NCBI GenBank assembly: GCA_048884965.1 | Contig: JBHLQH010000028.1 | Location: 1 to 46,195, forward strand | From: Candidatus Thorarchaeota archaeon | Lineage (GTDB): Archaea; Asgardarchaeota; Thorarchaeia; Thorarchaeales; Thorarchaeaceae | DNA: 46,195 bases | Reading direction: 5' to 3' | In this document: piece by piece, positions 4,279 to 38,042 of the stretch | How positions within the stretch are numbered: position 1 is the stretch's first letter | How the letters are laid out: the number at the start of each line of letters is the position of its first letter | Position numbers and translations under genes: made by a program | The notes under the pieces: generated by a model | What the model was told of the DNA's origin: nothing | The model's database searches: none | What the model saw: only the letters and a program-made list of their open reading frames with translations

Positions 4279-6015
4279 ATGCAAAATAATCGAAAGCAGC
4301 TAGTTTTGATGATTTGCTCAATTATCATTGTCGTATATATTGTATGGAGAACATTAAGTATTACAGCACCGTCAGAAGATTTCTTATACATAATCTCGAG
4401 AATCAAATTCGAGTCACTTGCGACTAGCTTCTATAACATAATTATGGGTTTGCTTTCGTTCATATTTTTCCTTGTCGTTCCAGGCCTTCCCTTTTTCATG
4501 AAGTGCATTGATGGGAATATCAAGAACTTGGAGATTAGCTTGATTTTCTGCATCGTCTATGCATCGGTTGGTATGTATTTTTGGATTCTATTTTTGATGA
4601 TTATCAATGCGAGTGTGTTGACCCCGTTTGGACCATTCCTTCTTCTATCACTTGCACTCCATTTGCCGTCTATTGGAACGAAACCAAAAAAGAGATCTGA
4701 AAATGATGAGGTACAGACTCAGGGAATCTTTGGAGTCAAGATTAAGCCACAAATAGGTGCTTTCTTGTTTGTATTCCTTCTTATTGTGTTGTTTCGTGTA
4801 CTTTTGTATTCGATCTATGTAGTGGAATTCAGCGATGGACTAATTTACGATTTTCATATCAATGCAATCGCAAATAATAGTTATTTGAGGGATCCAGAAT
4901 TTGCACGTAGAGCACCATTATATTCTATTATCGCGTATCAGTTTTCTTGGTTTCTCCCAACAGCTATAGATGCTTTGAAGTGTGTTTCCTTTGTATTCTC
5001 GTTAGCCATCATATTTCCCGCTATTTCAATTATGAAAACACTTTCTGGAAAAGAAAAAATTGATACTGGTACCTATATTCTGCTAGTACTGATTCTTTTT
5101 ACTTATAGTTGGATTAACCTGCTATCAGTGGTGAATCTTCAAGATGTACTGCTATCATTTTACACTATTTCATTCATAGCCATAATGCTCACAAAAGAAG
5201 CATTTTCAGAGATTCTTGGTGGAGCTTGTGGTGCACTTGCATTTCTATCAAGATATTCACTAGGTGTGCTTGCACCAATTGGATTTCTTTTCATACTCGT
5301 TCATAAGGAGAATCACAGAATCAGGATTGGATTGAGATTCATAATCACTTGGAGCTTAATCGCTATCTCATGGATACTTAGAAATTTGCTTGTCGCAGGA
5401 GTGCTTCTCTCGATAACAGATGAAGCACGATTGAGCCTCAATCATCTATATAATGGCCTAACAAATTCAATTGCTCATCTTCTAATGAATGATATATATG
5501 GTGTCAATATGCTCATTGTATGGATTCCAGCAGCCATAATGCTTGTTTTGTCTTTCTTTCGTAGACAAGGAAGAAAGCATCTTGCGCCTTTTTATTCAAG
5601 GGAGTATGCGTTCATATTCTTAGTCATGGTATCGCAAATTTTTGTTATTTCACTATTTGAGTCCTATCAATCAAGATTCCTCCTCTCAGTGATCTGGATT
5701 ATTCCCATTTTTTGGATTCATCTGAATACAAAATTGAATGTTCAAGGGATAGGAATACTGGCACTTGGATGGATTGTATTCAACATGCTCCATTGTATCA
5801 ATATCTTTAGAGTGTACTGGCTTTTCACTGAAGGAGTGTTACCACCTGGAGATTGGACATGGGATTACCAAATATCTGAAGCGATGATGCCTACAGAATT
5901 GAATGTAGTAATGGGATTGATATCTCTTATTTCACTACTAGTCGTTTCAACGCTATTGAGTAAAATCGGAAAAGAAGTAGGAGTAAACCCATATTCTGAT
6001 GATTGTGTAAAATAG
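4279..6015 (+). CDS. Polytopic membrane protein, probable GT-C (PMT/ArnT-like) glycosyltransferase
   Basis: More than 10 hydrophobic segments; acidic loop FSDGLIYD followed by RAPLYS; LAFLSRY; QSRFLL; glycosylation-cluster context. Confidence 0.55.
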   Translation: MQNNRKQLVLMICSIIIVVYIVWRTLSITAPSEDFLYIISRIKFESLATSFYNIIMGLLSFIFFLVVPGLPFFMKCIDGNIKNLEISLIFCIVYASVGMYFWILFLMIINASVLTPFGPFLLLSLALHLPSIGTKPKKRSENDEVQTQGIFGVKIKPQIGAFLFVFLLIVLFRVLLYSIYVVEFSDGLIYDFHINAIANNSYLRDPEFARRAPLYSIIAYQFSWFLPTAIDALKCVSFVFSLAIIFPAISIMKTLSGKEKIDTGTYILLVLILFTYSWINLLSVVNLQDVLLSFYTISFIAIMLTKEAFSEILGGACGALAFLSRYSLGVLAPIGFLFILVHKENHRIRIGLRFIITWSLIAISWILRNLLVAGVLLSITDEARLSLNHLYNGLTNSIAHLLMNDIYGVNMLIVWIPAAIMLVLSFFRRQGRKHLAPFYSREYAFIFLVMVSQIFVISLFESYQSRFLLSVIWIIPIFWIHLNTKLNVQGIGILALGWIVFNMLHCINIFRVYWLFTEGVLPPGDWTWDYQISEAMMPTELNVVMGLISLISLLVVSTLLSKIGKEVGVNPYSDDCVK

Positions 6016-8919: not shown

Positions 8920-10812
8920 CTAAATTAATTCATAGACCGAGAAATCCCTTGTTTCAAAAACAATAGGCGCATTTAGGGTTTGTAGAAACATCGACTCAAA
9001 AGCTCCTCCAGACTCATAGAAGGCCTCATTGCTACCCTTTATGCCAATAATAAATTTCATATTCAATTTCAAGAGTATAGTTTGAATTTCTGAGTCTGAA
9101 TAATTCCCTTCCATTATTTGAAACCACAGATTGCGAGGACTTAGTGGATATTTGAGCCATATGACATCAAAAGGATTCTCAATAATGCTAAATGTTGAAT
9201 TTTGAAGCACATCATCTTGATTAATATAACCTGAAATAAGAATACCTGTCCCATGTCCATCAGATAAGCAACCTACCTCTGCATATGCAGCGATACGAAC
9301 TTCAAGATAATAGTTTGAAGATATTATCATAGAATAATTCTGATCATTATTATTGTAATCTCGAATGAATTCCGCTATAGCGAGTTCTTGATCGCTAACA
9401 GATAAGGGGATAGAAATACCATTAACATCATTCGTTTGTCGCATATCACTATTCGATAGCGTGACAACTAGAATTATAATTATTACAGTAACTAACTTCA
9501 CGCGGGTTTCTGACGAAGGATTTAGTTGGAATGACTTGAAGTAAGAAGGAGAACTATGCGTGTAGATCCCTATCAAAAGCAGACTCATAAGAATGATTGG
9601 AGTCAATATTCCGTAAAGACCAATCTCACGCCAAAAAACATTGTAGAAACTGAAGAATACAGCAAATGAAGCTGCTTGAAAGAACAAGATAAGTAAGTAG
9701 GATAACCTGCTTTTCATTCTATCGAAACCATACAAAGAGAGACAGACTACAATTGGAGCTAGTATATGTCGTGAGTAAGCAGGAAGAACAAGGAAAAAAG
9801 TGAAAGGAAGGACCATCACGAGAAGGTGGAAATTGTTTGAATTCATGATCGTAGAATCATCGCTTATCCAAATCTCTCGGAGAATGCTAAATATGGAAAA
9901 TACACTCAGAAAAACAGCAGGTCCAAAAAACAGGAAGTAATCTACAAAGAAACCGACAAGACCTCGCAGAAATTCAGAGGAAATATCCGGAAGTACTGAG
10001 GCAGGAAGAGAGTTTTTCGGAGAGAATCCAAATATCGCTATTGAAGAAACAATCAAAATGGTTGCTATTGCCACGAACAAGATTACCGTGAACTTGTTTG
10101 TCCTAAGGAAAGAAAATTTGATAGTCAATTCATATCTATTTGCAAACCACGAAATGAATTTCACCATTAGAACCGCGAAAATGAAAAGTCCGAAAGCAAA
10201 AGCTGCTCGATGGAACAGCATCATCATGAACACCAGTAGCAACGAGTGAAGAAAATACTTGGTAGAATTAGTCCGATACCATTTCAGTAGACAGATAATA
10301 AACAATGGAGCTAATACAAGCATAGGAGCCCGACTTGTAGGGGTGTTGTATGTGAATTGATAGACGATTGGAAGGAACTGATAGACAAGGACACCTAGAA
10401 GCTGAATCCTCTGATCCTCGAAAAGATATCGAAATAGTAAGAAAGAGGTTACTCCTGCCAGAACACAGAAGATAACAACATAAATTGATACTGCAACCTC
10501 TAATGGAAGACCAGTAGCAAGGATTAGAGAGAATAGCAAGATTGACCCTATTGGATACCCTGAAAACGATACCATGCCTAGATATGAGAGGGGATGAACA
10601 AGCCAGAAAGAGGAAAATCCATTCAATAGATCGTTCGATTCTATTATTAGTGTAAATCCATCATAACCTTGGACGCTAGATTGCCTTGGGAGATGAAGTA
10701 TAATGCTAAGTAGAAGTACTAATGCAAAAAGGATGTAAATTTTATTTCTCTGTAGTGTTTCTAAGAATAATCCTTTTAGTTTGGATTTCTCTTGTTTCTT
10801 TGATTCATCCAT
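8920..10812 (-). CDS. Polytopic membrane protein, probable GT-C-fold glycosyltransferase
   Basis: Many TM; first loop QGYDGF...FSGYPIG; LFHR; soluble C-terminal domain starting VSDQELAIAEFI and ending DFSVYE, typical of GT-C extracellular domains. Confidence 0.5.
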   Translation of the reverse strand: MDESKKQEKSKLKGLFLETLQRNKIYILFALVLLLSIILHLPRQSSVQGYDGFTLIIESNDLLNGFSSFWLVHPLSYLGMVSFSGYPIGSILLFSLILATGLPLEVAVSIYVVIFCVLAGVTSFLLFRYLFEDQRIQLLGVLVYQFLPIVYQFTYNTPTSRAPMLVLAPLFIICLLKWYRTNSTKYFLHSLLLVFMMMLFHRAAFAFGLFIFAVLMVKFISWFANRYELTIKFSFLRTNKFTVILFVAIATILIVSSIAIFGFSPKNSLPASVLPDISSEFLRGLVGFFVDYFLFFGPAVFLSVFSIFSILREIWISDDSTIMNSNNFHLLVMVLPFTFFLVLPAYSRHILAPIVVCLSLYGFDRMKSRLSYLLILFFQAASFAVFFSFYNVFWREIGLYGILTPIILMSLLLIGIYTHSSPSYFKSFQLNPSSETRVKLVTVIIIILVVTLSNSDMRQTNDVNGISIPLSVSDQELAIAEFIRDYNNNDQNYSMIISSNYYLEVRIAAYAEVGCLSDGHGTGILISGYINQDDVLQNSTFSIIENPFDVIWLKYPLSPRNLWFQIMEGNYSDSEIQTILLKLNMKFIIGIKGSNEAFYESGGAFESMFLQTLNAPIVFETRDFSVYELI

Positions 10813-10876: not shown

Positions 10877-12898
10877 CTAATATAACTTGGGTGCCAAATT
10901 TATACGCGATATTACTTGATTAAATGAATTACCAAGACCAATTGCATCTAGATACCATTTTATTCCTTCATATCGGGGAGTGTTTTCCGACATCGACATC
11001 TCCAACCCTTTCTCACGGGTGAGAATTCCTTCTCGAATTTGATTGCTTCTGAATGTTTCATTCTCCGTAAAACCTGCCATTGAAAGATAGATGTAATTGT
11101 AGAAGGATGCAGTTCCATCTCCTATACGCCACGTAAGAGATGTGTCACTTGCGATCTCCCAATCATATTCATCGATTAGTGTCTTTGTCACTAATTCTTC
11201 ATCCCATTCAATGAAATCGTAGAGCCGAATATAATTGTGGGGGATGCCATAAAACGAGAAGAATCCAAAGAGTGTATCTAATATCGTACTATTCAGATAT
11301 CTTGGATTTCGTATGAAACTTTTCGCGTAATATGATGCGAGCATTACTTTCTTCGAAAACGATGATAGATCCTTTCCGGATTCAGTGCTGGGAGGAATAC
11401 CGCAAAATGCTGTTTTAAAATGAGTGCGTTCGTAAGGATTAGCCGAAAGAAATGCAAGCTTGATACCAGTTTGACCCATGAGCTTATTTGCATAGTAGAA
11501 GTATTGCTTATCTCCAGCCATAAAAAGTGGAATTGTACCCAAATCAGGCTTTGATAGCCAAGCTTCAACATTCTTTCTAATATTATACCGTTTCTTCGGG
11601 ATGTCCGCTGATACAAGGATGTGCTCCAATCCAAGTTTGCCACAGACACGAGCAATGTTTCTTCTTGCTAAATCGGTAACCATACCCCAATCGTATGTAT
11701 AGGTAATTGGATTCATTCCTAAGACTTCAGTAATGTAATGGACGCCGTAGGTGCTATCACGACCCCCACTAAACATAACGATACAATCCTGTTCATCTGA
11801 CTCGGTTCTGAATTTCTTTGTCACTTTGTCTAACATATCATGTCCTTTCAGTTTAATGGGATTGTATGATTTGCAATAATTGCAAACTCCTTCTTCATCA
11901 AATTCTATGAAAGGGAATGTTTCAGGAAGAATACATTTAGTACACCTTTGTAGCAAGTCTAACTTTTCCCGAGGATACAGCAAAAGAGAAGGATTATCTA
12001 TCACTGACTTACAATGTACAATGCCATATTCATACTCAGAACTCACAATTCGTTCATCAGGAATATTATCAATGATCGACCTATTTGCTCTTGCTAGTTC
12101 TATATCAGACGCCAATGGAACGGAGTCATTAATAGCAAAGCCATTTCGAGAAAGATTCTTCAAACTGATAATCTCTCCAGAATAAGGCATAATTCTTCGT
12201 ATTTTGCAGGTTCCGAAAATATCCTTCAACATGCGATTATTTTGGATTTGCTTCAAGATGTACCTTTCAGACGCGTAGATGAAAATCCCAAGGCCCTCTG
12301 TGTCAAATGTATATAATGATCCATTATTTGTGGCAACAGCTATCGAATCCAAATCCTCGAATTGCAGAATTATAGACGCGTTTCCCTTAATTATAGTCAT
12401 TGCCTGTTTCAATGCCCCTTCTAGGGAGTTTGATTGACTGAAATAATATCTAGTTAAATCCAAAAGTATCTCTGTATCAATATCGTATTCTCTTGACAAA
12501 GAGGGATATTTATCCCATAGGGAAGAAGAATTCACTATTATTCCGTTATGAACACCAACAATGCCACTCTTAACAACAGGCTGATTGTTCTCATGCTTAT
12601 TCTGACTTCCATCAGTGACCAACCGAGAATGTCCAATCAAAGAGATAGGAGATGAAATTTGCTTCTTGGAATCGAGATTCGCATCCAGAAGTGTCTTGCA
12701 CGTCTTTGTTTTGAGCATCCTAGTTGCAGGAATCGGAACTTTGTAAACGTGAATAGCGTTATCCTTTAGCAATGAAAATCCAGCCGATTCTTTCCCACGC
12801 GATTCGGACAGCTTGAATAAAGATTCTACAATCTTTCGAAATACAGAATAAGATAGATTTGATTCTTTTCCTGCGATAACGCCAATAATCCCACACAT
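10877..12898 (-). CDS. Fused class II (Ntn) glutamine amidotransferase + N-acetyl-sugar amidotransferase (WbuX/PseA-like PP-loop ATPase)
   Basis: N-terminal MCGIIG, GHSRLVT, HNGIIVN, DTE; then CTKC..CNYC and PP-loop SGGRDS, WRIGDG. Confidence 0.85.
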   Translation of the reverse strand: MCGIIGVIAGKESNLSYSVFRKIVESLFKLSESRGKESAGFSLLKDNAIHVYKVPIPATRMLKTKTCKTLLDANLDSKKQISSPISLIGHSRLVTDGSQNKHENNQPVVKSGIVGVHNGIIVNSSSLWDKYPSLSREYDIDTEILLDLTRYYFSQSNSLEGALKQAMTIIKGNASIILQFEDLDSIAVATNNGSLYTFDTEGLGIFIYASERYILKQIQNNRMLKDIFGTCKIRRIMPYSGEIISLKNLSRNGFAINDSVPLASDIELARANRSIIDNIPDERIVSSEYEYGIVHCKSVIDNPSLLLYPREKLDLLQRCTKCILPETFPFIEFDEEGVCNYCKSYNPIKLKGHDMLDKVTKKFRTESDEQDCIVMFSGGRDSTYGVHYITEVLGMNPITYTYDWGMVTDLARRNIARVCGKLGLEHILVSADIPKKRYNIRKNVEAWLSKPDLGTIPLFMAGDKQYFYYANKLMGQTGIKLAFLSANPYERTHFKTAFCGIPPSTESGKDLSSFSKKVMLASYYAKSFIRNPRYLNSTILDTLFGFFSFYGIPHNYIRLYDFIEWDEELVTKTLIDEYDWEIASDTSLTWRIGDGTASFYNYIYLSMAGFTENETFRSNQIREGILTREKGLEMSMSENTPRYEGIKWYLDAIGLGNSFNQVISRINLAPKLY

Positions 12899-14329: not shown

Positions 14330-16972
14330 TTGCATCTTTTGACGAATAGATGTGAAGCTCTTAAGGAATCTTTCAGAAACCATATTCTCCAAAAGTGGGG
14401 TTCGATTGATCCAGTGTTTCAAAGTCTCATTATATACATCGCATCTTTAGGTGGTTTCCTGTTCTTCTCAAATTTGACAGGTATATTTCTTGCTACTATT
14501 CCTAGAATTGCCTTTGGAGCAATTGCAATTCTAATTATCCCAGGGAGTTTACTAGGACAACATATCCTACCTTCTACTTTGCGAAATATTCTCTCATCTT
14601 CAATTTTGGGATTGATACTGGCGATTTTTCAAATACAAGCATTGTTTGTACTGGGTCTTGCGTTAGATATTCATGTCCCATTACTTATATGGATGGTTCT
14701 TACAAATGTGGTTCTGTTTTTGATTCTCCTAAGCAGCCATGTTCTATCCAAACAGAAAAATGAAATCAAGAGTTTCTTCGTTATAGGTTTGAATAAGACA
14801 TTACTAGGAATCATCACTGTTTCATTTTTGATAAGAATTCTCATGGCAGTTTTCAGCATTGGAGCGATCTCTCCTGATGCCTGTGTTTATGCAGATTATG
14901 CGAGATCCATGATTGACGGTGATTTCCTCACCCATGTGCAGTATGACAGTGCGGTCTATGAGTTGTGGAATGGTTTTGAATATGCATTTCATCAAGCTTT
15001 TGTGTATTTATTCGCAGTATCATGGTTACTTGCACCTCCTACAAGCTCTGGACCGATTCTTATTCTGATAATCATTGGAACGTTGCTAGTTTATTCAGTA
15101 TATGAACTCACAAAATCCTTTTTTGGAGAGATACCAGCAACTACTGTAGCGTTTATCATTTCAATTAACCCACTATATGTATTTCACTCAGCAGTGGCCT
15201 ATGGCCCTGAAATCACAAGTTTGCTATTCATCATCTTTGGAATACTACTTCTTAACCATGAAGAGGCAAATGCACCAACACAATTCCTTGCTGGACTGAT
15301 GTTTGGCTTGGTTGATGTCATTTGGTATGCAAATTTCTACATGTTGGTAATCATAATTCCAATCTTCCTTTTAATCACAAGGCGTGAGGAAAAATCAAAT
15401 CTGGTGACTGCTCTACTGGTTTTTCCAACTCTGTTTCTCGCCAGGGCTTTCTTCGATTCAGTATTATTCTTCTATTGCCTGATTGTCAGTGTACTAATTC
15501 TTTTGAGTGTCGTTTCTATCAAATCAGATAAATCAAATATGAAGTATCCTCTTGCAATCTATTGTGGAACGATATTGGTGATAATACTATGGCGAGGGAT
15601 ACTACAGACCATGCTGATTCTCACCGGAAATCCGATTGCAATACTTGTCAATCAAAGTCATTCGGTGCCTTTGATGGTTATCGTGCCGATCATTGAGTTT
15701 CTCACTTCGCCTTTTACACTTATACTCGTATTGCAGTTCATCGGATTTTCGATATTTCATATCACGCCAGCGATCCTCTTGTTCATCTTCAGTGTGATAT
15801 ATTACAGAAAAAGAGATAGAAATCTTGTTGGATTAGTTGTTCTTGGAGTGTTTGGTTTAGCTGGAACCTTCTTCGTATTTGCTTCCCTATCAGCAGCCAA
15901 AACACTGCTTGAATTAATCTATCTCTACTCAGATTCGAGATTCTTTATTTCACCCGTTTTGTTCTTCGTAATTTCTCTTGGATCTTTGTTTCAGTTCATC
16001 CTTAAGGAAGCAAATGAGATTTCATTTCGAAATGTAGTCCGGCATAGGGGGCAGAAGCAGGAAAAACAGATTTCAACAATATTGATCATCATTATGATTG
16101 GATTCGTACCTTGCTTTGCACTTACTCGAACAGGAATCGATCTGGTTCAAATAGAGAAAAGATATGCATGGCAAGGACTTGTTGATGAAATTCGGGGAAT
16201 TGGAACGGCAGATTCTTTTTACTTGGTGGAAAGAGCAGGTGAATTCACTTGGCTAACTAATAGACAAAGTATGCGAATGCGCTTTTCAGAACCCGGAATA
16301 CCATCATATCAAGCTTATAGCCATCTACTGTCCCGAGTAGAGTACTATGATTTGGATTATATAATGCTTGATCTCTACACGATAGCGCGATGGAATACGG
16401 CAATAGATTTACTTCAAAATCCCCTTGAAAAGGGTGACGCGATTCCAGCAGACGTAGACGATCTGACTCAATATATTGAGTCGAATCAAACAAAAACAAT
16501 CACATCCTTTATTCTAAGAGGGCAAACACCACCGAATTCGGAGGGCGATCATGTTCGAATCTATGAGGTAGGACTCGCAAATTATGAGATGACTGAAACT
16601 GTTGAGATTACCAATTCTAGCTGGATTGCGGGAAATGGAGGAAACTTCATTGAGTATGAAGATTACACTCATATTGCAATTGGATACAATCAGAACTATA
16701 CGTTTGTAAGAAGAGCACTAGGTCCTGATCTTAATATGGGATTGAGCCGCGGTTTTCTGGTTTTTGATTTCAAGAATGCGACTGCAACCATTGCACGTAT
16801 AGAAGTATACAATCCAAACAACGAAATAATCCAGTCTGCAATGAGGGTAGAAGATAATCTATACTACTGTATGTTGGGTAATGTAGTTGTTGGAGACATT
16901 ATCATCGTACTAGAAGGTGTCCCAGGAGATTATGCGGATTTTAACTCTGTGTCAGTATGGCAAGGCATCTGA
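14330..16972 (+). CDS. Large GT-C-like polytopic glycosyltransferase with soluble C-terminal domains
   Basis: 880 aa; N-terminal IIPG TM module, loop SPDACVYADYARSMIDG, INPLYVFHS..GPE, DSRFF; ~280 aa soluble tail; TTG start after GAGGAG. Confidence 0.6.
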   Translation: MHLLTNRCEALKESFRNHILQKWGSIDPVFQSLIIYIASLGGFLFFSNLTGIFLATIPRIAFGAIAILIIPGSLLGQHILPSTLRNILSSSILGLILAIFQIQALFVLGLALDIHVPLLIWMVLTNVVLFLILLSSHVLSKQKNEIKSFFVIGLNKTLLGIITVSFLIRILMAVFSIGAISPDACVYADYARSMIDGDFLTHVQYDSAVYELWNGFEYAFHQAFVYLFAVSWLLAPPTSSGPILILIIIGTLLVYSVYELTKSFFGEIPATTVAFIISINPLYVFHSAVAYGPEITSLLFIIFGILLLNHEEANAPTQFLAGLMFGLVDVIWYANFYMLVIIIPIFLLITRREEKSNLVTALLVFPTLFLARAFFDSVLFFYCLIVSVLILLSVVSIKSDKSNMKYPLAIYCGTILVIILWRGILQTMLILTGNPIAILVNQSHSVPLMVIVPIIEFLTSPFTLILVLQFIGFSIFHITPAILLFIFSVIYYRKRDRNLVGLVVLGVFGLAGTFFVFASLSAAKTLLELIYLYSDSRFFISPVLFFVISLGSLFQFILKEANEISFRNVVRHRGQKQEKQISTILIIIMIGFVPCFALTRTGIDLVQIEKRYAWQGLVDEIRGIGTADSFYLVERAGEFTWLTNRQSMRMRFSEPGIPSYQAYSHLLSRVEYYDLDYIMLDLYTIARWNTAIDLLQNPLEKGDAIPADVDDLTQYIESNQTKTITSFILRGQTPPNSEGDHVRIYEVGLANYEMTETVEITNSSWIAGNGGNFIEYEDYTHIAIGYNQNYTFVRRALGPDLNMGLSRGFLVFDFKNATATIARIEVYNPNNEIIQSAMRVEDNLYYCMLGNVVVGDIIIVLEGVPGDYADFNSVSVWQGI

Positions 16973-17007: not shown

Positions 17008-17997
17008 CTATACAAAACTATCAATTTGGTTTGCTGTAGGAGGTAACTCCTTAAACCATTCAATAGTCCTCTCAATGCCTTCATCAATCCCGATTTTGCT
17101 TTCCCATCCAAGTAACTTTCTTGCTTTTGATGCATCTGCACATAGTCGAAATACTTCACTTTTAGATGGACGCACTTTTGTAGCATTAAATACAATTTTT
17201 GCCGGGGAACCTGTAGCCTTTATTATTTGATTAGCTATCTCTTCAATTGTTATTTCTATTCCAGTTCCAAGATTAATTACTTCCCCAAATACACTCTTTC
17301 CCTTTGTTGCAGCTGCGATCATTCCACTAACTGTATCTCCAACATAGTTGAAATCTCGAGTAGGACGAACATCACCAAGAAATATCACATCGTTGAATAG
17401 AGCTTGAGAGATAATAGTGGGAATTACGGCGCGTACAGATTGTCGAGGGCCATATGTGTTGAAGGGCCTAATGGTTACGACGGGAGAGTCGAAAGAGCGA
17501 AAATAGCTGTATGCAACCATATCAGCGCTAATCTTACTAGCAGAATATGGCGATTGTCCTTTGAGAGGGTGGCTTTCAGAGATAGGTACTGTTTCTGCTG
17601 TGCCATAGACTTCGCTAGTCGAAGTGTGAATTATTGACTCAGTGCCTAATTCCTTTGCGGCTTCCAAGATATTGATGATGAATGAAACATTGTTGTTGAA
17701 ATATTCTCTTGGGTGAACATATGAATAGGGGATCGAAACAAGTGAAGCTAGATGAAAAACACAATCCACGTCTTTCATAGCATGTGTTACAGCTTCAGGA
17801 TTCTGCAAGTCACCATACACTATCTCTAAGTTATCCGGAAATGGTTTGAGATAATCCAAATTCCCGACATTGCCAGATGCGGTGTATCGCACGAAAGCGC
17901 GCACATTTGCATCGGATTGAAGAAGCTTTTCGACAAGATGGCTACCAATGAATCCTCCGGCACCTGTCACTAGTATTGATGAGTTCCTCAAATCCAT
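17008..17997 (-). CDS. NAD-dependent nucleotide-sugar 4,6-dehydratase/epimerase (extended SDR, LegB-like subfamily)
   Basis: TGAGGFIG, HTSTSEVYG, QSPYSASK, RPFNTYGPRQSxRAVIPTII, RPxKSEVxRL. Confidence 0.9.
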   Translation of the reverse strand: MDLRNSSILVTGAGGFIGSHLVEKLLQSDANVRAFVRYTASGNVGNLDYLKPFPDNLEIVYGDLQNPEAVTHAMKDVDCVFHLASLVSIPYSYVHPREYFNNNVSFIINILEAAKELGTESIIHTSTSEVYGTAETVPISESHPLKGQSPYSASKISADMVAYSYFRSFDSPVVTIRPFNTYGPRQSVRAVIPTIISQALFNDVIFLGDVRPTRDFNYVGDTVSGMIAAATKGKSVFGEVINLGTGIEITIEEIANQIIKATGSPAKIVFNATKVRPSKSEVFRLCADASKARKLLGWESKIGIDEGIERTIEWFKELPPTANQIDSFV

Positions 17998-18090: not shown

Positions 18091-19431
18091 CTAAGAGTCC
18101 AGACCGATGATAAACCGTCGTTTTCCCCCCTTTGTTAGAGGAATCTCCTCAACTTCCTGTATTTGAAATTCAATATCAGGAAGATTGTATTCAAGTAATT
18201 TGAGTAATTCAGTTCTATCAATCCGAGTGTCTTTTTGATTTACTACCTGTACCAAAACAATTTCTGGACTTATCTGCTTAATTTGAAATTGCTTCACAAA
18301 TGGGAAAACGTAGCGAAAGATATGTCCGAATACTTCGCCGTGGACTGCATATCCAGTTGGAGATTTTATGACATCCATAGTCCGACCCTCAATGGATTGA
18401 ATAGTTGGCAGAGTTCTTCCGCATTCGCAGGTTTCATCAACATCACGAATAATATAATCGCCTACCTCATAACGAATGAATAATGTGGCGAAATTGTGCA
18501 AATCCGTTAGTATTAACCTACCTTCCTCACCAGGACCAACAGGCATACCATTCTCATCCAAGATTTCCCATACCGCAACATGGGGTAAATAATGATAATG
18601 TCCGTGTTCACATTGAAATGCCTGAGCACCGCCGTCTCGTGCTCCATATTGATCATACACAGGTGAATTGAAGGCTTTCTCTATCTTCTCTTTTTGAACC
18701 GGCCAGAGTTTCTCGGATGTCGTAAATATTGCTTCAAAACTTGGAGGAGTAATACCTTCTTTCTCCAAAAACCCAATTACTTCAGTGATACCCGAAGGTA
18801 GACCTCTAAAGAAGCGGGCTTTTGAATGATACATCTCAGAAATCATGTTTCTAATGGATTTTGGATTCATATGGAAAGTGGAGAGGCTTTTATTATCCTG
18901 TAGCCATGATCGCATAAGATTCGTGAATGTTTCCTTTATCGTACTAGGTTTTGGAAATATGGTTTCCCCAGCTACCGTTACGAGTTTATCGCCTGGACAC
19001 CATCCACCCCAAGTAAAGGATTGTAGCAGGACTCCTGAATGAAGTGACCAGTGATTCAACGATGTGCGATATTCTAGAGGTTGCCCGGTGGAGCCACTTG
19101 ATGCACACATATTATAGCGAACTGATCGCCTTGAAAAGAAATCGGCGAGGTGCTGTTTTACATATGCCTTGTCAACTATAGGTATTTTTGATAAGTCTTC
19201 AATTCCACGAATGTCAGAAGGTGTTATCTTATGCTTCTTCATGATTCGTCGATAGAAGGGAGTGAAATCGTAGGCGTACTTCACAATCCTTCGAATGAGC
19301 TGGTCTTGATTGCTCTTCATCATCTGACGCGATAAGCGTTCATGACCGACGCTGCTATAAAAAGAGTCGACTATCGTCGTTCTAAGCAGCTTATCTGCCA
19401 ATATCACTTTGGGGGGAAATCTGTACTTCAT
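18091..19431 (-). CDS. Phenylacetate-CoA-ligase-like (PaaK/CapK family) adenylate-forming enzyme
   Basis: YAYDFTPFYR, SSGSTGQP, TSEKL, DQYGARD, LTDLHNFA..IRYEVGD, IEGR, LTKGGKRR. Confidence 0.88.
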   Translation of the reverse strand: MKYRFPPKVILADKLLRTTIVDSFYSSVGHERLSRQMMKSNQDQLIRRIVKYAYDFTPFYRRIMKKHKITPSDIRGIEDLSKIPIVDKAYVKQHLADFFSRRSVRYNMCASSGSTGQPLEYRTSLNHWSLHSGVLLQSFTWGGWCPGDKLVTVAGETIFPKPSTIKETFTNLMRSWLQDNKSLSTFHMNPKSIRNMISEMYHSKARFFRGLPSGITEVIGFLEKEGITPPSFEAIFTTSEKLWPVQKEKIEKAFNSPVYDQYGARDGGAQAFQCEHGHYHYLPHVAVWEILDENGMPVGPGEEGRLILTDLHNFATLFIRYEVGDYIIRDVDETCECGRTLPTIQSIEGRTMDVIKSPTGYAVHGEVFGHIFRYVFPFVKQFQIKQISPEIVLVQVVNQKDTRIDRTELLKLLEYNLPDIEFQIQEVEEIPLTKGGKRRFIIGLDS

Positions 19432-19497: not shown

Positions 19498-20745
19498 TTA
19501 GCGGTTGATAATAGAAGGTATATCATCGAAGCAGAAACTTAGTTCTTTATGTTCATCAGAGAGATCGTGCACATAACGTCTAATTACTTCTGGCTCTCTG
19601 TCTCCCGATATAGCAAAATTGATAATCTCGGCAATTTCCTTCATTTCCGATTCTTTATATCCTCTACGCGTGATTTCAGAGGTTCCAATTCTTACAAATG
19701 AGTCGACGAAAATATCACAAATTTCCAGACTACGCTTGAAGGCAAGTCCTTCTTGTTTTTTCATTGGAAGTAAAATCTGATGCGATTTGCTAATTCCATG
19801 TTGACTATTCACTATAACAGAGTATCCAAGGTTCAGTAGTTCTTGGCCAAGTGCAATCGAATTTCGTACTACCTGTTCTGCATATTCTTTACCAAATTCA
19901 AGCATTTCAAGAATGGCAAATCCCAAAGAAGCAATTCTATGTGAATGAACATTATCAACTAAGACGGTTCCTTGATGTTCTCCAAAGGGATGTTGAGAGG
20001 TTTGAATTGAGAATTGTGATACAACAGACTCGAAAATCGATTTGTCATTTCCAACAACCAAGCCTCCTTGAGGACCTGGAAAGGATTTATGTGTACTTCC
20101 AAAAAGAACAGGAATTCCTTCCTTTAGTGGGTTTTGAAATTGGGAACCTGCTATCAATCCTAAAACATGAGAACCATCAAACACCGTGAATTGCGTATCT
20201 GAAAGATGATCTTGAACTTCTGTAATAGAAATAGGATATGCTATGGCACTTGCTCCAAGTATAGTCAGTTTTGGTTTCTTGCTCTGAAAGAACTCCTCTA
20301 ATTTTGCATAGTCTAGAGACCACTCACTCCGGTCAAATGGTAGATATGCAGCCTTACGTCCAAAGTACTCAATCTGAAACGGATAACCTCCATCATCGCT
20401 CGATATGAGCGCAATTGTATCATCAATAGTTGTTAGTGAGTTGAGAGCTGCCAAATCACACAGATGACCACTGAGAGGGGCAACACATGCAAAATCGCAA
20501 TCGAATAATTCCTTGACAAGGGTTTCAACGAATGCAATTATTTTTCGATTTACTGAACTTCCACCATAAAATTCTGATGAATATCTACCGACAAGGTCAG
20601 AAGATAAAGCGGCAAGGGCATGTGTTGATAGGACATTTTCTGAAGCGACTAGATTAAGGCAGTTCTGCCGCATCTGATTATGTCTTGTAAGATATGAAGA
20701 AAGCTGTTTCATTCCTTCAAACGGAGTTCTTTCGCGATTATTCAA
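19498..20745 (-). CDS. SHMT-fold PLP-dependent enzyme (divergent; probably folate-independent)
   Basis: LNLVASEN, FDGSHVLGLIAG, PLP lysine in GSTHKSFPGPQGG, VRIGTSEITRRG. The canonical YAEG, GGHxSH and folate-loop motifs are missing. Confidence 0.85.
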   Translation of the reverse strand: MNNRERTPFEGMKQLSSYLTRHNQMRQNCLNLVASENVLSTHALAALSSDLVGRYSSEFYGGSSVNRKIIAFVETLVKELFDCDFACVAPLSGHLCDLAALNSLTTIDDTIALISSDDGGYPFQIEYFGRKAAYLPFDRSEWSLDYAKLEEFFQSKKPKLTILGASAIAYPISITEVQDHLSDTQFTVFDGSHVLGLIAGSQFQNPLKEGIPVLFGSTHKSFPGPQGGLVVGNDKSIFESVVSQFSIQTSQHPFGEHQGTVLVDNVHSHRIASLGFAILEMLEFGKEYAEQVVRNSIALGQELLNLGYSVIVNSQHGISKSHQILLPMKKQEGLAFKRSLEICDIFVDSFVRIGTSEITRRGYKESEMKEIAEIINFAISGDREPEVIRRYVHDLSDEHKELSFCFDDIPSIINR

Positions 20746-20826: not shown

Positions 20827-21546
20827 TTAGAAGAGGTCTTTCAACCAGGATGGACCATCATTATCATTGTCGCCTTTCGCGATTTGGAGATAATCGTTCA
20901 TACGACCAATATCCTTCCAAGGATCTTCAAATTTATATCCCATTACATGTTTCCCACTCTTTTTAGCATCAACAATGAATTGAGTCATTTGATATAAACC
21001 ATTATCAGGGATTAGACTGAGGACTTCTGGAGATACAGCATATATACCTGAATTGATCAGAAAATTAAATTGTGGCTTTTCCTTGATTTCATTTATTCCG
21101 CTTTCTTCATCGGTCGTTATGATACCATAAGGAATGGATATTTGAAAATGCTTGAGTGCAACTGTGAGCTCCGCATTCTTAGACTTGTGAAAATTTAGTA
21201 GGTCAACTAAACTCAATTTGGTTAGAATATCTGCATTCATCACAAGAAATGGATCATCAATTACCTCTTTTAATGGTAGAAGTGGGCCAGCGGTTCCGCG
21301 TTTCTCATTTTCAAAGACATACTGAATATCCACATCCATTGTAGATCCATCACCGAAATAGCTTTGAAGGATCTCAGCTTTGTAATTCACAAGCAGGAAA
21401 ACTCTCTTGAACCCTTGCTCCTTCGCGCGCGTAATATTGATTTCCAAGATGGGCTTTGAGCCTATTGGTAGCATGGGCTTTGGTACTGCATAAGTGAAGG
21501 GCCGTAGTCTTGAACCTTCACCCCCGCATAGAAATGCTATATTCAT
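20827..21546 (-). CDS. Sugar-phosphate nucleotidyltransferase
   Basis: GGEGSRLRPFT..PKPMLPIG..PILE, GTAG, MNADIL, EKP, WKDIGR. ATG 21546 preferred over the TTG at 21573. Confidence 0.92.
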   Translation of the reverse strand: MNIAFLCGGEGSRLRPFTYAVPKPMLPIGSKPILEINITRAKEQGFKRVFLLVNYKAEILQSYFGDGSTMDVDIQYVFENEKRGTAGPLLPLKEVIDDPFLVMNADILTKLSLVDLLNFHKSKNAELTVALKHFQISIPYGIITTDEESGINEIKEKPQFNFLINSGIYAVSPEVLSLIPDNGLYQMTQFIVDAKKSGKHVMGYKFEDPWKDIGRMNDYLQIAKGDNDNDGPSWLKDLF

Positions 21547-21699
21547 TAGTTGTTCCTGCAGATAGTTATACAATTACTGGATATGGTTAGGTGAGATGGT
21601 TACTGTAATATCAGTAATCTAGTACCATAGCCCGAACTCGAGAGATATTAAAATCTATGTGTATTTCATGAATTTGATAGCTCTGATTCATCTCATGAT

Positions 21700-22698
21700 T
21701 TATCCATTTTCGGTATGGTGATATTTTGTAATATATTCTGTGACCACTTGATTTATCCCATCACTCAACGAATGCTTAGGCCAAAATCCCAAAACTGCCT
21801 TGGCGCGCTCACCTAGACATCTAACGTTTTCTACCAAGGATATCGTCGGTTCTTCGTGTATGATTCTCAATGAAGGAGTCTGAAAAGCACTCAGGACCAT
21901 CCGTGCTATTTCTAAAATGGTATACGACCTATCACCACAGATATTGAGAGTAGCTCCTGCTGCCTGTTTGGTTTCGAGAGCCAAAGTAATTGCTTCTGTT
22001 ACATCCTGAATGTGGACATACGATCTGGTGCGATTACCATCTCCAAATACTATGAAGTTCTCATTTCTTAATGCAGAAGAGATGAACACCTGGAGAGGAC
22101 CTATTTCGTTAAGTTCTTGATGGGGACCATAAACATTGGTCAATCTTAATATCACGTATTCAAAATTATAGTGATTGGAGAGAGCTTGGATGTACTTCTC
22201 AGCCGCAAGCTTAGAAATACTATAGGGATTCAAGGGATTAGTTGGATGCCTTTGCTCATCGAAATCATCAAGAAAATTGCCATAAACCGCGATTGATGAA
22301 ATAAAAATAAGCCGTCGAATTCTACGTTTCTTCAATGCCGTCAGAAGACGAATTGTACCTAAAACATTCACATTTTCATAGATTAGTGGGTTCTCAAAGG
22401 ATTCTTTAATTGAGGTTATTCCAGCAGCATGAATAACCAATTCCACATCAGATGGAATGATTTTCTCAAGATCATCATCAATAAGATTACAATGTATCAG
22501 ATTAAACGAATCTGGACCAAGATGGATATGGGAAGGCAAGCTTTGTCCAGGCAAATCAAGACCATACACTTTGTAACCAGATTCTACTAGCCTCGCAGCC
22601 GTTGAAGAACCTATGAATCCACAGACGCCTGTGACAAGGACCGAGCTTTTAGAAGACATGACCGCCATCACCAAATTGGCAGATTCGTTCTGATTCAT
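21700..22698 (-). CDS. NAD-dependent epimerase/dehydratase (GalE-like SDR)
   Basis: TGVCGFIG, SSIAVYG, YSISK, NVYGP, GDG..TRSYVHI. True start may be ATG 22659 (GGTGA upstream). Confidence 0.9.
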   Translation of the reverse strand: MNQNESANLVMAVMSSKSSVLVTGVCGFIGSSTAARLVESGYKVYGLDLPGQSLPSHIHLGPDSFNLIHCNLIDDDLEKIIPSDVELVIHAAGITSIKESFENPLIYENVNVLGTIRLLTALKKRRIRRLIFISSIAVYGNFLDDFDEQRHPTNPLNPYSISKLAAEKYIQALSNHYNFEYVILRLTNVYGPHQELNEIGPLQVFISSALRNENFIVFGDGNRTRSYVHIQDVTEAITLALETKQAAGATLNICGDRSYTILEIARMVLSAFQTPSLRIIHEEPTISLVENVRCLGERAKAVLGFWPKHSLSDGINQVVTEYITKYHHTENG

Positions 22699-22852: not shown

Positions 22853-24157
22853 TTGACCAGATTCGCAGAGATCAATGACAGGATTGATAGAAAAATAGCG
22901 AGGGTATGTGTTTTAGGTTTGGGATATATTGGACTACCAACTGCCCTCTTCTATGCGGAGAAAGGGTTACAGGTTATCGGTCTTGATACAAATGATGAAC
23001 TTGTCGACAATCTACGAAAAGGCCGCATTTACATGGAAGAAGATGGATTGGAAGAACTGGCCAACCGTAATCTTCCGAAAATAGAGCTCTTTACATCCTA
23101 TGAGGATATTACTGATATTGATGTATATGTTGCATGTTTACCAAGTCCTGTCACTCGTGAAAAGACAGTGGTATTGCGATATATCGAAGACTCGATATCT
23201 CAAATTGGGAAACGTGCTGATAAGGGAGGGCTCATCCTAATTGAGAGTACAGTACCGATTGGCACTACTGAAAGGCTGGGAAAGCTCTTCACAGAAGAGA
23301 GTGGGTTTGAAATTGACAAAGACTTCTGGATAGCTCACTGTCCAGAAAGAGTTCTACCAAGTAAAGTTGTAGAAGAAATGAGGAAAAACCCTCGATTGGT
23401 TGGAGGAGCCACAAATCAGTCCACTGAGCTTGCGGCTATTTTCTTGTCATCTGTCTATAGTGAAGGACTGATTCATAAGACTTCTTCAAAGGTGTCAGAA
23501 GCTGCGAAATTAGCTGAGAATTCTTTCAGAGATGTGAACGTAGCATTTGCTAATGAATTGGCATGTATTTGTGCCGAACTCCAAATTGATGTGACAGAGG
23601 TAATTAAGCTCGCCAACCTTCATCCGCGAGTGAATATTCTCAATCCAGGAATAGGTGTTGGAGGTTATTGTCTACCAAAAGATGGTTGGCTATTGGTGCA
23701 ATCTATAAGAGAAGGCTCATTCATACCGGTTCTTATTCCAGCAGCCAGAGATATCAATGATAGTATGCCAAACTATGTTTTCAAGCAAATACAAAGGATA
23801 AGCAACGATACATTTTCCCTGAAACCTGCAGTAGGTCTCTTGGGACTCAGTTTCAAAGCAAATGTATCAGATACAAGAAATAGTCCATCAATTGAACTTG
23901 TACATCTACTTCTTGATGCAGGAATAGATGTCATTGTTTTCGATCCATATGTAGATAGAGACTTTGGTGGGAAAAGAGCTTCTTCTTTGGATGAAGTACT
24001 AAATCAATGCAATATTATCATTCTGGGAGTGGCGCACGATATTTTACTTAAGGACCTAAAAGAACGTGATTTGAGTTCGAAAACCATCTTCGACCCAAAT
24101 GGTTCACTTCATGATTTCAAAGCAAAAATCGGAACGTATCATGGGACCTCGGTTTGA
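22853..24157 (+). CDS. Nucleotide-sugar 6-dehydrogenase (UDP-N-acetyl-D-mannosamine dehydrogenase-like)
   Basis: GLGYIGLP, ESTVPIGTT, AHCPERVLP, HPRVNILNPG.GVGGYCLPKD, GLSFKANVSDTRNSP; TTG start with GGAGG. Confidence 0.92.
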   Translation: MTRFAEINDRIDRKIARVCVLGLGYIGLPTALFYAEKGLQVIGLDTNDELVDNLRKGRIYMEEDGLEELANRNLPKIELFTSYEDITDIDVYVACLPSPVTREKTVVLRYIEDSISQIGKRADKGGLILIESTVPIGTTERLGKLFTEESGFEIDKDFWIAHCPERVLPSKVVEEMRKNPRLVGGATNQSTELAAIFLSSVYSEGLIHKTSSKVSEAAKLAENSFRDVNVAFANELACICAELQIDVTEVIKLANLHPRVNILNPGIGVGGYCLPKDGWLLVQSIREGSFIPVLIPAARDINDSMPNYVFKQIQRISNDTFSLKPAVGLLGLSFKANVSDTRNSPSIELVHLLLDAGIDVIVFDPYVDRDFGGKRASSLDEVLNQCNIIILGVAHDILLKDLKERDLSSKTIFDPNGSLHDFKAKIGTYHGTSV

Positions 24158-35802: not shown

Positions 35803-36903
35803 CTAACTAACAGTCCGCCAATAGATGCCCAATTCATCAGCCCTCTCGAAGGCTAAGCGCATTTCCTCATTACTTACCCGTCTGGATATGTCTCTATAAT
35901 CATCGGGATTTCGTCTGACTCTATGCTCAGGTCGATACTGAGCCATGATGTTGACCATGCAATTCGGTAGGTTCTCCGACACCCATTCAAGAATCGGAAA
36001 GGTGCAGCAAACCGTATGGTTAGGAAGTACGAGATGACGGATGATCACTTCACCATTCTGATATGCGATCAAGTGGTTCCTTGACACGATATCGAAGTAC
36101 CTCTCGACTCCCGACAATCGCTTGGCGCACTCGTTGTTGCCATACTTGAAGTCTGGGAGCCATACATCCATTAGGTCAGCGATAAGAGCCATTGCCTCGG
36201 AAGAACCATACATACTCGAGTTCCATAGCTGGGTGATATTCGAGGTCTGGTATGTGAGGGAGCCAATGATGTTGTGAGTGTTTGGTACCGGATCCCCGCC
36301 CACGTAGTTGATGTTCAAAGCTCCATCCTGGCTAAGTCGTTCAGCGAGCAGGGCAAGTTCCTGTTCACTTATCACTCGTCCAGAGTTCGGGTTCGTAGAG
36401 ATATCCTCATTCTGACAGAAGGCACAGGCTAAGCAGCAGGAGGAGAAGAAGATGGTCCCACTGGGAACGAGAGGCGGCTCCTCACCTGTGTGAAGAAAAG
36501 CTGATGACACGCGGGACTCTTCACCAAGCTTGCACCATCCCCTTTGTCCAGCAGTCCTATCAGAGCCGCATCGTCTCTCACATAGATGACAGTCCTTGAT
36601 GATGCGTCGAGCAAGCTCCACCTTCAGATCCAAGAAGCTCCTCTGAAGCTCATCAGGCTCTTGACGCTGCGCACCAGAGTCGATGTGCTTGACATATGCA
36701 ATGAACTTGTGGTGCAACTCAGAATGTGCGGCCCACAGGAACTGGTCGGATTCATCTAATCGCGTGTCACACGGAAGGTCTTTAGCTAGGAGATACTTTG
36801 CCCATCGTTTTCCATCGATGACATCACGGTATCTTGAGAGGCGCCTGACGGTCTCAGGGTCTTTCCAAGCCTTGATGGCATCAGGTCGTAGCATCTTCCA
36901 CAT
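35803..36903 (-). CDS. PflX-like radical SAM protein
   Basis: CHLCERRC..R..GWC, HTGEEPPLVPSGTIFF, CxxxCxxC (CCLACAFC)QN, WNS, DFKYGN, RHLVLP, QYRP. Confidence 0.9.
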   Translation of the reverse strand: MWKMLRPDAIKAWKDPETVRRLSRYRDVIDGKRWAKYLLAKDLPCDTRLDESDQFLWAAHSELHHKFIAYVKHIDSGAQRQEPDELQRSFLDLKVELARRIIKDCHLCERRCGSDRTAGQRGWCKLGEESRVSSAFLHTGEEPPLVPSGTIFFSSCCLACAFCQNEDISTNPNSGRVISEQELALLAERLSQDGALNINYVGGDPVPNTHNIIGSLTYQTSNITQLWNSSMYGSSEAMALIADLMDVWLPDFKYGNNECAKRLSGVERYFDIVSRNHLIAYQNGEVIIRHLVLPNHTVCCTFPILEWVSENLPNCMVNIMAQYRPEHRVRRNPDDYRDISRRVSNEEMRLAFERADELGIYWRTVS

Positions 36904-36947
36904 GACAACGGAATCTAGTCCTCAAGATGTTAAAAGCTCTATGAAGC

Positions 36948-37922: not shown

Positions 37923-38042
37923 CGGTCGTCATTCTTACGATACAGTGCTCGCTCATTAGCCTTCTGGGAGTTCCAGATTATTAGAAATGTAGCAAACCAT
38001 ATCAAGGCATTGTCTTGATTTGGATACAGGAGTTGCGCCAAT

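Follow-up and report, generated by a model that had tools for sequence, protein, structure and literature searches.

The 46,195-nucleotide contig JBHLQH010000028.1 of a Candidatus Thorarchaeota archaeon (GCA_048884965.1), the whole of which we call the window, carries a gene for a protein (P0001) that has the fold of serine hydroxymethyltransferase (SHMT), a pyridoxal phosphate (PLP) enzyme, and a remodeled active site. The gene starts with TTG, has an in-frame ATG 11 codons further in, contains no internal stops, and is the third in a tight minus-strand run of five separated by gaps of 66-126 bp. The five genes, in the order of the run, and the gene that diverges from them are given below, where SDR stands for short-chain dehydrogenase/reductase and G002 is another genome of the same genus.

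21700..22698, minus strand: second SDR, a GalE/dTDP-glucose-dehydratase-like epimerase or reductase, first of the run (PF01370, 183 bits; NCBIfam hits)
20827..21573, minus strand: sugar-1-phosphate nucleotidylyltransferase (PF00483, 140 bits; NCBIfam), 62% identical to the copy in the G002 module
19498..20745, minus strand: remodeled SHMT-fold PLP enzyme P0001, 415 aa (PF00464, NF000586, AlphaFold2 (AF2)/Foldseek)
18091..19431, minus strand: CapK/PaaK/F390-synthetase-like adenylate-forming ligase, 446 aa, its start 66 bp beyond the end of the SHMT-like gene
17008..17997, minus strand: LegB-like NAD-dependent nucleotide-sugar 4,6-dehydratase (TIGR04180, 400 bits with a cut-off of 475; PF16363, 242), 69% identical to the G002 copy
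22853..24157, plus strand: UDP-N-acetylmannosamine (ManNAc)/UDP-sugar 6-dehydrogenase-like gene, divergent from the operon (TIGR03026, 368 bits, above cut-off; NF040825, 323 bits)

The divergent dehydrogenase is a possible source of uronic acid. The protein encoded at 18091-19431 matched the NCBIfam models of PaaK, the DVU_1553-family AMP ligase and F390 synthetase, all under cut-off, and no Pfam model matched it above threshold. Its counterpart at another locus (L020), encoded directly downstream of the SHMT-like gene there and bearing a precomputed PF27533 CapK_C hit, shares 30% identity with it (E 4e-59). The operon is part of a glycan island that occupies ~40 kb of the window and also includes GT4, GT2 and GT87 glycosyltransferases, two further UDP-sugar dehydrogenases, two flippase-like proteins and a WbuX-like amidotransferase. 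The G+C content of the island is 41.3%, compared with 44.1% for the genome. This context is one of glycan tailoring and not of one-carbon metabolism, in agreement with the distinct, folate-independent subfamily that a first-pass annotation, made from the sequence, had proposed for the protein.

When P0001 was compared with family models, it scored about 106-110.6 bits with Pfam PF00464 (SHMT), above the cut-off of 27, and 209.8 bits with NCBIfam NF000586 (SHMT), under the cut-off of 335. Canonical SHMT copies in relatives score 230-566 bits with PF00464, against 106 for the window gene. The best sequence match in the PDB was the SHMT of M. jannaschii (188 bits, ~30% identity), while E. coli GlyA scored 105 bits and ObiH 80 bits. 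The score with TIGR04506 was 167 bits (cut-off 650), which leaves P0001 outside the threonine transaldolases by sequence, and PF01041 (DegT/DnrJ/EryC1), the family of nucleotide-sugar aminotransferases, was absent among its Pfam hits. An AF2 model built with 19 sequences of the subclade described below was confident (pLDDT 88.4, pTM 0.89), with residues 243-267 as the low-confidence exception. The top Foldseek matches of the model were SHMTs (TM 0.84-0.87 to 4bhd/4uqv), and ObiH (7k34) came at rank 13 (TMq 0.84), in line with the SHMT fold read in the first-pass annotation.

The active site was inspected in a MAFFT alignment of P0001 with E. coli GlyA (locus L013, from NC_000913) and the canonical SHMTs of same-genus genomes. 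Hereafter, residues between S35 and R363 are numbered as in E. coli GlyA unless P0001 is named. S35, Y55, Y65, D200, H203, H228, K229 and R363, the residues that bind PLP and the substrate carboxylate, are retained, and the motifs ASEN (P0001 residues 34-37) and DGSH (190-193) are present. Further segments of the active site, with P0001 residues in brackets, are as follows.

20560..20586, minus strand: RYSSEFYGG (54-62), the shortened Y55-E57-Y65 loop, with a 6-residue deletion
20455..20472, minus strand: SGHLCD (92-97), replacing the SGxxAN phosphate-loop motif
20377..20391, minus strand: GGYPF (119-123), with Tyr121 in place of the PLP-stacking His126 and the next loop deleted
20086..20097, minus strand: STHK (217-220), with the PLP-binding Lys220, aligned with E. 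coli K229 and found in 157/157 members of the clade described below
19966..20016, minus strand: 13-residue subclade-specific insertion, QFSIQTS.HPFG.H.GT (244-260), of low model confidence
19681..19713, minus strand: IFVDSFVRIGT (345-355), with the Asn347 pterin-binding loop deleted and Arg352 (R363 in E. coli) kept

The YAEG..RYY loop of canonical SHMT has six residues fewer in P0001 (RYSSE, a gap, then FYGG). His126 is replaced by Tyr and the downstream HLTH (archaeal HISH...) loop is gone, so that GGH(L/I)(T/S)H reads GGYP, and 14-21 residues of the Asn347 loop are deleted ahead of R(I/V)GT. The Glu57, His126-Leu127 and Asn347 loops that form the pterin/folate pocket are each deleted or replaced, and the PLP lysine, Asp200, Ser35, His203, Arg363 and Tyr65 are in place and are invariant or near-invariant in the clade. 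The alignment shows a protein that is predicted to bind PLP and the carboxylate of an alpha-amino acid without any pterin pocket, and because of the loop deletions we infer that P0001 would work independently of folate or pterin. All of the motifs quoted in the first-pass annotation (ASEN, DxSH, STHK, RYSSEFYGG, SGHLCD, GGYPF and IFVDSFVRIGT) were found at the residues given here, and the alignment confirmed the remodeled active site and the folate-loop deletion that it had described. Its account of the Glu57 segment is correct as to the shortened loop; as to the residue, Glu58 of P0001 aligns under Glu57 of E. coli, yet this position varies in the clade (E, D, P, K, R, A). The 13-residue insertion at residues 244-260 is an extra feature beyond those listed there.

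Comparison with M. jannaschii GlyA (4BHD/4UQV) gives the same pattern. The two proteins share fold-type I, the STHK lysine, Asp-x-x-His, the archaeal GPQGG motif and the carboxylate-binding Arg, whereas P0001 lacks the YAEG..RYY core, the His126 loop and the Asn347 loop (the pterin pocket), has Tyr for the stacking His, carries the 13-residue insert, and is a second copy located in a glycan cluster.

A word-indexed search with P0001 returned 5332 proteins at E <= 1e-10, and an exhaustive search of 50%-identity representatives returned 1973 hits; 245 homologues of 360-470 aa were sampled, canonical controls included. Tyr or Phe at position 126 together with a short 340-363 loop marks 157 of the 245, and these form one clade, supported at 0.909 by FastTree in the full sample, with two exceptions inside, and by an SH-aLRT (approximate likelihood ratio test) value of 94 in IQ-TREE with LG+C20 on a 59-row subset. 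P0001, which has Tyr126, the three shared deletions and the retained K229 and R363, lies within this clade and separate from ordinary archaeal and bacterial SHMTs in both trees. The proposal of a distinct subfamily is thus borne out by the phylogeny with archaeal GlyA, as well as by the NF000586 score under cut-off, the glycan context and the non-GlyA role described below. K229, D200 and R363 are invariant in the clade (157/157 each), and Y55 and Y65 are nearly so (155/157 each). Position 126 is Tyr or Phe in 155/157 members and His in 76/88 sequences outside. Over E. coli positions 55-70, clade members have a median length of 11 and the sequences outside one of 17; over positions 340-363 the medians are 10 and 21.5, respectively. 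As nearly every member carries Tyr or Phe at position 126 and the short loops are common to the whole clade, the active-site changes are not chance drift. The first-pass annotation had listed aldolase, transaldolase, decarboxylase and transaminase as candidate activities, of which decarboxylase seems the least likely for P0001 because Arg363, which anchors the carboxylate, is found in every clade member.

Within the clade, P0001 belongs to a 22-member subclade (subclade A; FastTree 0.937, IQ-TREE SH-aLRT 90). The 13-residue insertion after the PLP lysine is found in 22/22 of its members and in 0/135 of the other clade members, and the Cys of SGHLCD is invariant in it (22/22). By record titles, the clade ranges over Thor-, Sif-, Hod-, Heimdall-, Hel-, Hermod- and Baldrarchaeota, Bathyarchaeia, Thermoplasmata and Nitrososphaerales, with a few bacterial carriers, among them the cultured Agrobacterium vitis and Rhizobium paknamense. 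A metagenome scan for further subclade A loci gave, among the matches listed, nearly all relatives from clade B (36-44% identity) and no new glycan-type loci. The contigs of L015/L016 (P0055), L084 and L097, labeled Zixibacteria, Methylomirabilota and Acidoferrum, carry archaeal ribosomal proteins, eRF1, family-B polymerase and Tyw1, and are probably archaeal contigs mis-binned in bacterial metagenome-assembled genomes (MAGs). Fused genes were considered as pointers to function. P0135 consists of the remodeled domain with a 215-aa N-terminal extension that has no Pfam match, and P0179, P0205 and P0236 are His-bearing and lie outside the clade. P0236 (1067 aa) is a fusion of two domains, one of the B12-binding radical SAM type and one SHMT-like with His, and represents a different SHMT-fold architecture.

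The literature searched contained no description of the clade and no SHMT-like gene in a glycan cluster, and the glycine route of GapMind 2026 (GlyXL/GlyXS) is unrelated to the clade. Among the closest parallels are ObiH, LipK and the fluorothreonine transaldolase, which are also folate-free SHMT-fold PLP enzymes of specialized biosynthesis, and in which the vacated site takes a carbonyl acceptor. They differ from P0001, which has no specific sequence kinship with them and has an amide ligase and nucleotide-sugar genes as partners. A folate-free transfer of the glycyl unit of Thr to an aldehyde, as in these enzymes, would be compatible with the lost folate pocket of P0001. Because this kinship is lacking and the L-threonine transaldolases (LTTAs) reportedly keep the stacking His, as the first-pass annotation had stated, the loss of the folate site in the clade is, as far as the sequences tell, independent of the LTTAs.

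The window's assembly (G000) comprises 4.09 Mb in 99 contigs and is 95.7% complete, and a Pfam scan found the window gene as its single full-length SHMT homologue. When same-genus canonical SHMTs were used in tblastn, the last 24 codons of a canonical glyA (KKDYQKVHYAFDTETEAYAHLRFK*) were detected at contig C90:3-74 with 83-92% identity, and over the next 400 bases there is synteny with what follows glyA in five relatives. Because C90 holds both the C-terminus and the syntenic downstream DNA, a canonical glyA exists in G000 and is cut off by the assembly gap at the edge of C90. The possibility that the window gene is the only glyA in the genome, which the first-pass annotation had raised against its own reading, is ruled out by these observations.

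The two forms are also distributed differently. Among 200 genomes of the phylum, the canonical copy is present in nearly all (230-566 bits), and the remodeled form is low-scoring and patchy. In the window's genus the latter occurs in G000 and G002 only, since the fragments in G001 and G006 are ~30% identical to P0001 and are not the remodeled form. A search of five other genomes with the remodeled form found a second SHMT homologue in 5/5, which is clearly canonical in 4/5: both forms are together in two Bathyarchaeia, one Heimdallarchaeon and A. vitis, and the second copy in a Baldrarchaeota genome is low-scoring and split by a stop. The window gene is a paralogue with its own job and not the housekeeping glyA.

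We collected ten subclade A loci and clustered the neighboring genes. An adenylating ligase is found <=6 kb from the SHMT-like gene in 9/10 loci and is directly adjacent to it in 7/9; the tenth locus is a contig edge. In 7/10 loci there is an AsnB-like PP-loop enzyme with the motif SGG(L/M)DS, which adjoins the SHMT-like gene in five, and these AsnB-like partners are without the N-terminal Cys (Cys2) and are consequently no glutaminases. The CapK/PaaK-like ligase lies directly downstream in 2/10 loci, the window and L020. The window gene, with its insert at residues 244-260 and the ligase 66 bp downstream, has both marks of the subclade. The module of G002 resembles that of the window in its SHMT-like (57% identical), LegB-like (69%) and nucleotidyltransferase (62%) genes, and an AsnB-like gene stands where the window has the CapK-like one, a non-homologous ligase swap. 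Of all the evidence, this swap inside a single genus speaks most strongly for a PLP enzyme and an ATP-dependent amide ligase working as a functional pair, and it argues against a co-evolved complex of the two.

The pair is accompanied by two SDR genes, with or without the nucleotidyltransferase, in at least 5/10 loci. At L018 the SHMT-like and AsnB-like genes occur without a dehydratase, and a short-chain dehydrogenase precedes them. No DegT-family gene was found in the subclade A loci examined or in the 46-kb window; in the whole of G000, the PF01041 scan gave one strong match (404.6 bits, contig C11) and five weak ones (23-41 bits). Two proteins of the window, of 630 aa and 673 aa, were considered as counterparts of the AsnB-like partner and are not orthologues. 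At the locus of the closest homologue (L010:10241-11889), a glycine-cleavage H-protein and a class I/II aminotransferase are encoded 2-3 kb downstream of the SHMT-like gene, an arrangement that may be coincidental or may reflect a connection with glycine metabolism.

When lineages were counted at 65% identity, one of four unrelated ATP-dependent carboxylate activators lay beside the gene in 13/52, so a clade-wide pairing with such activators is suggestive and not universal. In Thermoplasmata, the remodeled SHMT is followed on the same strand by a ThiF/MoeB-like activating enzyme (E1), with an overlap or gap of -16 to +23 bp, and then by an 81-86-aa MoaD/SAMP-like open reading frame (ORF) ending in GG. 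This set of SHMT-like, E1 and ubiquitin-like (Ubl) genes, found at the four places listed here, may represent an amino-acid pathway linked to a protein thiocarboxylate or to the Ubl.

L150:6385-8520: SHMT-like/E1/Ubl set
L028:8007-10105: SHMT-like/E1/Ubl set
L043:6485-8649: SHMT-like/E1/Ubl set
L055:6222-8357: SHMT-like/E1/Ubl set

The conserved upstream neighbor in Thermoplasmata (cluster 2) was considered as a pathway enzyme and rejected, being a surface protein with a signal peptide and a transmembrane segment. In Heimdall, the genes near the SHMT-like one include those of an ATP-grasp enzyme and of a PLP enzyme of Cys/Met metabolism. A Tyw1-like wyosine radical SAM gene is directly preceded by the remodeled SHMT in Bathyarchaeia (L066:9193-10209, L063:4072-5112 and ~20 others). 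Genes for Trm5/Tyw2, endonuclease V and translin are also near these loci, and the whole arrangement could be mere synteny of the lineage. In rhizobia (L039:8001-11556 of Agrobacterium vitis NCPPB 3554 and L078 of Rhizobium paknamense), a clade member 39% identical to P0001 is followed by a 644-682-aa GMC-oxidoreductase-like protein, and a canonical glyA is also present. The neighborhoods in rhizobia, in Cloacimonadota-labeled records and in Bathyarchaeia consist of heterogeneous housekeeping genes, and no clear pathway was found in them.

Several other genes were observed in and near the glycan island of the window. The 673-aa protein at 10877-12898 (minus strand) combines an N-terminal class-II glutamine amidotransferase domain with a WbuX-like N-acetyl-sugar amidotransferase (TIGR03573, 112 bits), a fusion that points to the synthesis of acetamidino sugars by the island. 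Four long ORFs in the island (547-880 aa) without Pfam match, at 2562-4205, 4279-6015, 8920-10812 and 14330-16972, probably encode membrane or polymerase-type proteins. The island is flanked at 35803-39407 by a radical SAM gene, a fragment-level match to an OTCase-like carbamoyltransferase, and an adenylosuccinate-lyase-like gene.

Starting from the observed fold, the residues kept and lost, the clade, the canonical glyA elsewhere and the conserved gene pairing, we tentatively favor, at somewhat less than even chances, the interpretation that a folate-independent PLP enzyme makes or reshapes an amino acid and that the ligase links it as an amide to a sugar carboxylate. The window gene would be co-transcribed with the carboxylate-adenylating ligase in the surface-glycan island. 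P0001 would bind PLP and the carboxylate of an alpha-amino acid and form the aldimine and quinonoid of glycine or a beta-hydroxy amino acid. Because the three deletions have removed the tetrahydrofolate/methanopterin binding, it could not hand a one-carbon unit to a pterin, and a small alpha-amino acid would be made or reshaped through folate-independent aldol or transaldol chemistry with the carbonyl partner sitting in the vacated folate cleft. The ligase would then form an amide bond between this amino acid and a sugar carboxylate, for example of an N-acetylhexosamine (HexNAc)-uronic acid supplied by the adjacent dehydrogenase, and the end product would be an amino-acid-decorated glycan. The folate independence, the reaction type, the amino acid and the order of steps in this scheme are inferred. 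The neighbors in other branches, namely the E1 with its MoaD-like GG protein and the ATP-grasp enzyme, also activate carboxylates and support the pairing.

Known glycans provide parallels for such a product. VpsH of V. cholerae, which is PaaK/CapK-like, is required to add glycine to the N-acetylguluronosaminuronic acid (GulNAcA) of the lipid-linked disaccharide of the VPS polysaccharide (PMC13463779). The 18091-19431 protein is of the same broad PaaK/CapK family and is likewise encoded in a Wzx-type cluster of glycan genes, among them a UDP-ManNAc-dehydrogenase-like one; in contrast, the vps cluster has no SHMT-like partner and its amino acid is ordinary glycine. In archaea, the N-glycans of Prometheoarchaeum syntrophicum include a sugar of 304.127 Da, a mass consistent with HexNAc plus threonine, and Methanococcus glycans carry threonine on the uronic acid of ManNAc (ManNAcA) (PMC11284389). 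Amino acids on glycan sugars, including those of an Asgard archaeon, are thus the kind of product proposed here, but no link can be drawn between the decoration in P. syntrophicum MK-D1 and the window enzyme, as that strain lies outside the paralogue search.

Several points weigh against this interpretation. No characterized clade member was found in the literature searched. There is no obvious need in the cell for an enzyme devoted to Gly, Ser or Thr, and a non-standard amino acid would therefore be required. Glu57 matters for the retro-aldol chemistry of SHMT, and its position is variable across the clade; the Bathyarchaeia, the largest branch of the clade, have no ligase neighbor. A uronic-acid dehydrogenase is present in only 2/10 subclade A loci, with a 2-epimerase in 2 more, and what is kept in at least 5/10 is the 4,6-dehydratase, the second SDR and the nucleotidyltransferase. 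A sugar acting as the carbonyl substrate fits this retention at least as well.

That alternative would be a LipK-like carbon-carbon coupling, in which a PLP-glycine carbanion attacks the nucleoside diphosphate (NDP)-4-keto-6-deoxy-HexNAc that the adjacent nucleotidyltransferase and LegB-like dehydratase would produce, or a sugar aldehyde, giving a glycyl-branched or chain-extended sugar amino acid whose new carboxylate is amidated by the ligase. The SHMT-fold transaldolases LipK and ObiH add glycine to carbonyls held in the former folate site, and the structure of ObiH is among the matches of the P0001 model, at rank 13. All five operon genes would then act in a single linear pathway, in keeping with the recurrence of dehydratase, SDR and nucleotidyltransferase genes at half or more of the loci and in the G002 module. 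In addition, the 13-residue insert after K220 aligns just ahead of the FPG stretch of E. coli GlyA, a part of the folate cleft, and could bind a larger second substrate. Nevertheless, SDRs and nucleotidyltransferases are common in any glycan cluster and their association may be incidental, and at L018 the pair does without a dehydratase. Kinship with LTTAs is no closer than with SHMT (80 bits for ObiH against 188 for the M. jannaschii enzyme, and the TIGR04506 score far under its cut-off), and we know of no glycan with a glycyl-branched sugar. On balance we regard the coupling as unlikely.

The operon also recalls the LegB-LegC-LegH and WbpB-WbpE-WbpD pathways, in which a nucleotidyltransferase, a LegB-like dehydratase and a PLP enzyme are followed by an acylating step; it differs in that the PLP enzyme of the window has the SHMT and not the DegT fold, and acylation would be carried out by an ATP-dependent ligase instead of an acyl-CoA transferase. 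P0001 might accordingly be a keto-sugar aminotransferase that replaces the DegT/LegC type, turning the dehydratase product into an NDP-4-amino-4,6-dideoxy sugar with the donor amino acid held on Arg363, after which the ligase would N-acylate the amine. The gene order mirrors the logic of PtmE-LegB-LegC-LegH, and the absence of DegT-family genes from the subclade A loci and the window leaves room for such a replacement. An aromatic residue stacked on PLP, as with Tyr for His here, is typical of aminotransferases, and the short-chain dehydrogenase ahead of the pair in L018 also agrees with it. We consider this quite unlikely all the same: contig C11 of the genome carries a normal DegT gene, transamination on SHMT scaffolds is no more than a slow side reaction that inactivates the enzyme, and the second SDR could simply reduce the 4-keto sugar, with no aminotransferase needed. 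Moreover, the same active-site changes occur in clade members outside glycan clusters, which speaks for a clade chemistry that is not sugar-specific.

The Thermoplasmata sets bring up a third alternative, beta-elimination or beta-replacement, in which an aminoacrylate formed from serine or a serine ester is attacked by a nucleophile, a protein thiocarboxylate in Thermoplasmata and a sugar- or ligase-bound group in the window. The E1 with a GG-ending 81-aa MoaD/SAMP-like protein resembles the layout of the CysO-MoeZ-CysM and HcyS-MetY systems, the Cys/Met-metabolism PLP enzyme near the Heimdall loci points the same way, and the loss of Glu57 and His126 is expected to weaken retro-aldol chemistry. 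To our knowledge, however, no SHMT-fold enzyme performs beta-replacement; the E1 and Ubl genes may simply be neighbors with housekeeping roles, and the island in the window is without sulfur-related genes, which makes this reading very unlikely. An ordinary divergent SHMT that binds pterin in another way and serves housekeeping Ser/Gly interconversion would account for the only full-length homologue in the assembly and for the intact PLP- and amino-acid-binding residues, but it is extremely unlikely given the glyA tail and synteny on C90, the deletion of all three pterin-contacting segments, the patchiness of the gene among close relatives that all keep canonical glyA, and its place in a variable glycan island of lower G+C (38.8%, compared with 44.1% for the genome).

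SHMT is among the best-studied PLP enzymes, and the threonine transaldolases are its few known folate-independent offshoots, valued as biocatalysts for beta-hydroxy amino acids. The present results suggest that the clade is a much larger, independently folate-less offshoot of SHMT, to which, extrapolating from the 245-sequence sample, many of the thousands of matching metagenomic proteins belong. Database records label these proteins 'glycine hydroxymethyltransferase' or 'hypothetical', and such labels probably inflate the one-carbon metabolism inferred for archaeal MAGs. The cultured rhizobia are tractable organisms for the genetics of the clade.

The window gene is part of a five-gene glycan-tailoring module, whose reaction would be of the kinds weighed above. 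If the sugar itself is the substrate, a new glycan-tailoring reaction would be at hand. In the furthest-reaching form of this idea, which we hold to be improbable, P0001 would act directly on a nucleotide- or lipid-linked sugar, as a first among SHMT-fold proteins. With the room of the excised folate pocket it would attach glycine, through a carbon-carbon bond, or an amino group to the 4-keto sugar that its neighbors make, an interchangeable ATP-dependent ligase would complete a new type of amino-acid-branched sugar for the surface glycans of Asgard archaea, and the clade as a whole would be a PLP module that works with carboxylate activators of four folds. An SHMT-like enzyme with a swappable amide ligase in glycan islands constitutes a concrete two-enzyme module, and this module may explain the amino-acid-decorated sugars of Asgard surface glycans, a field that is almost unexplored.

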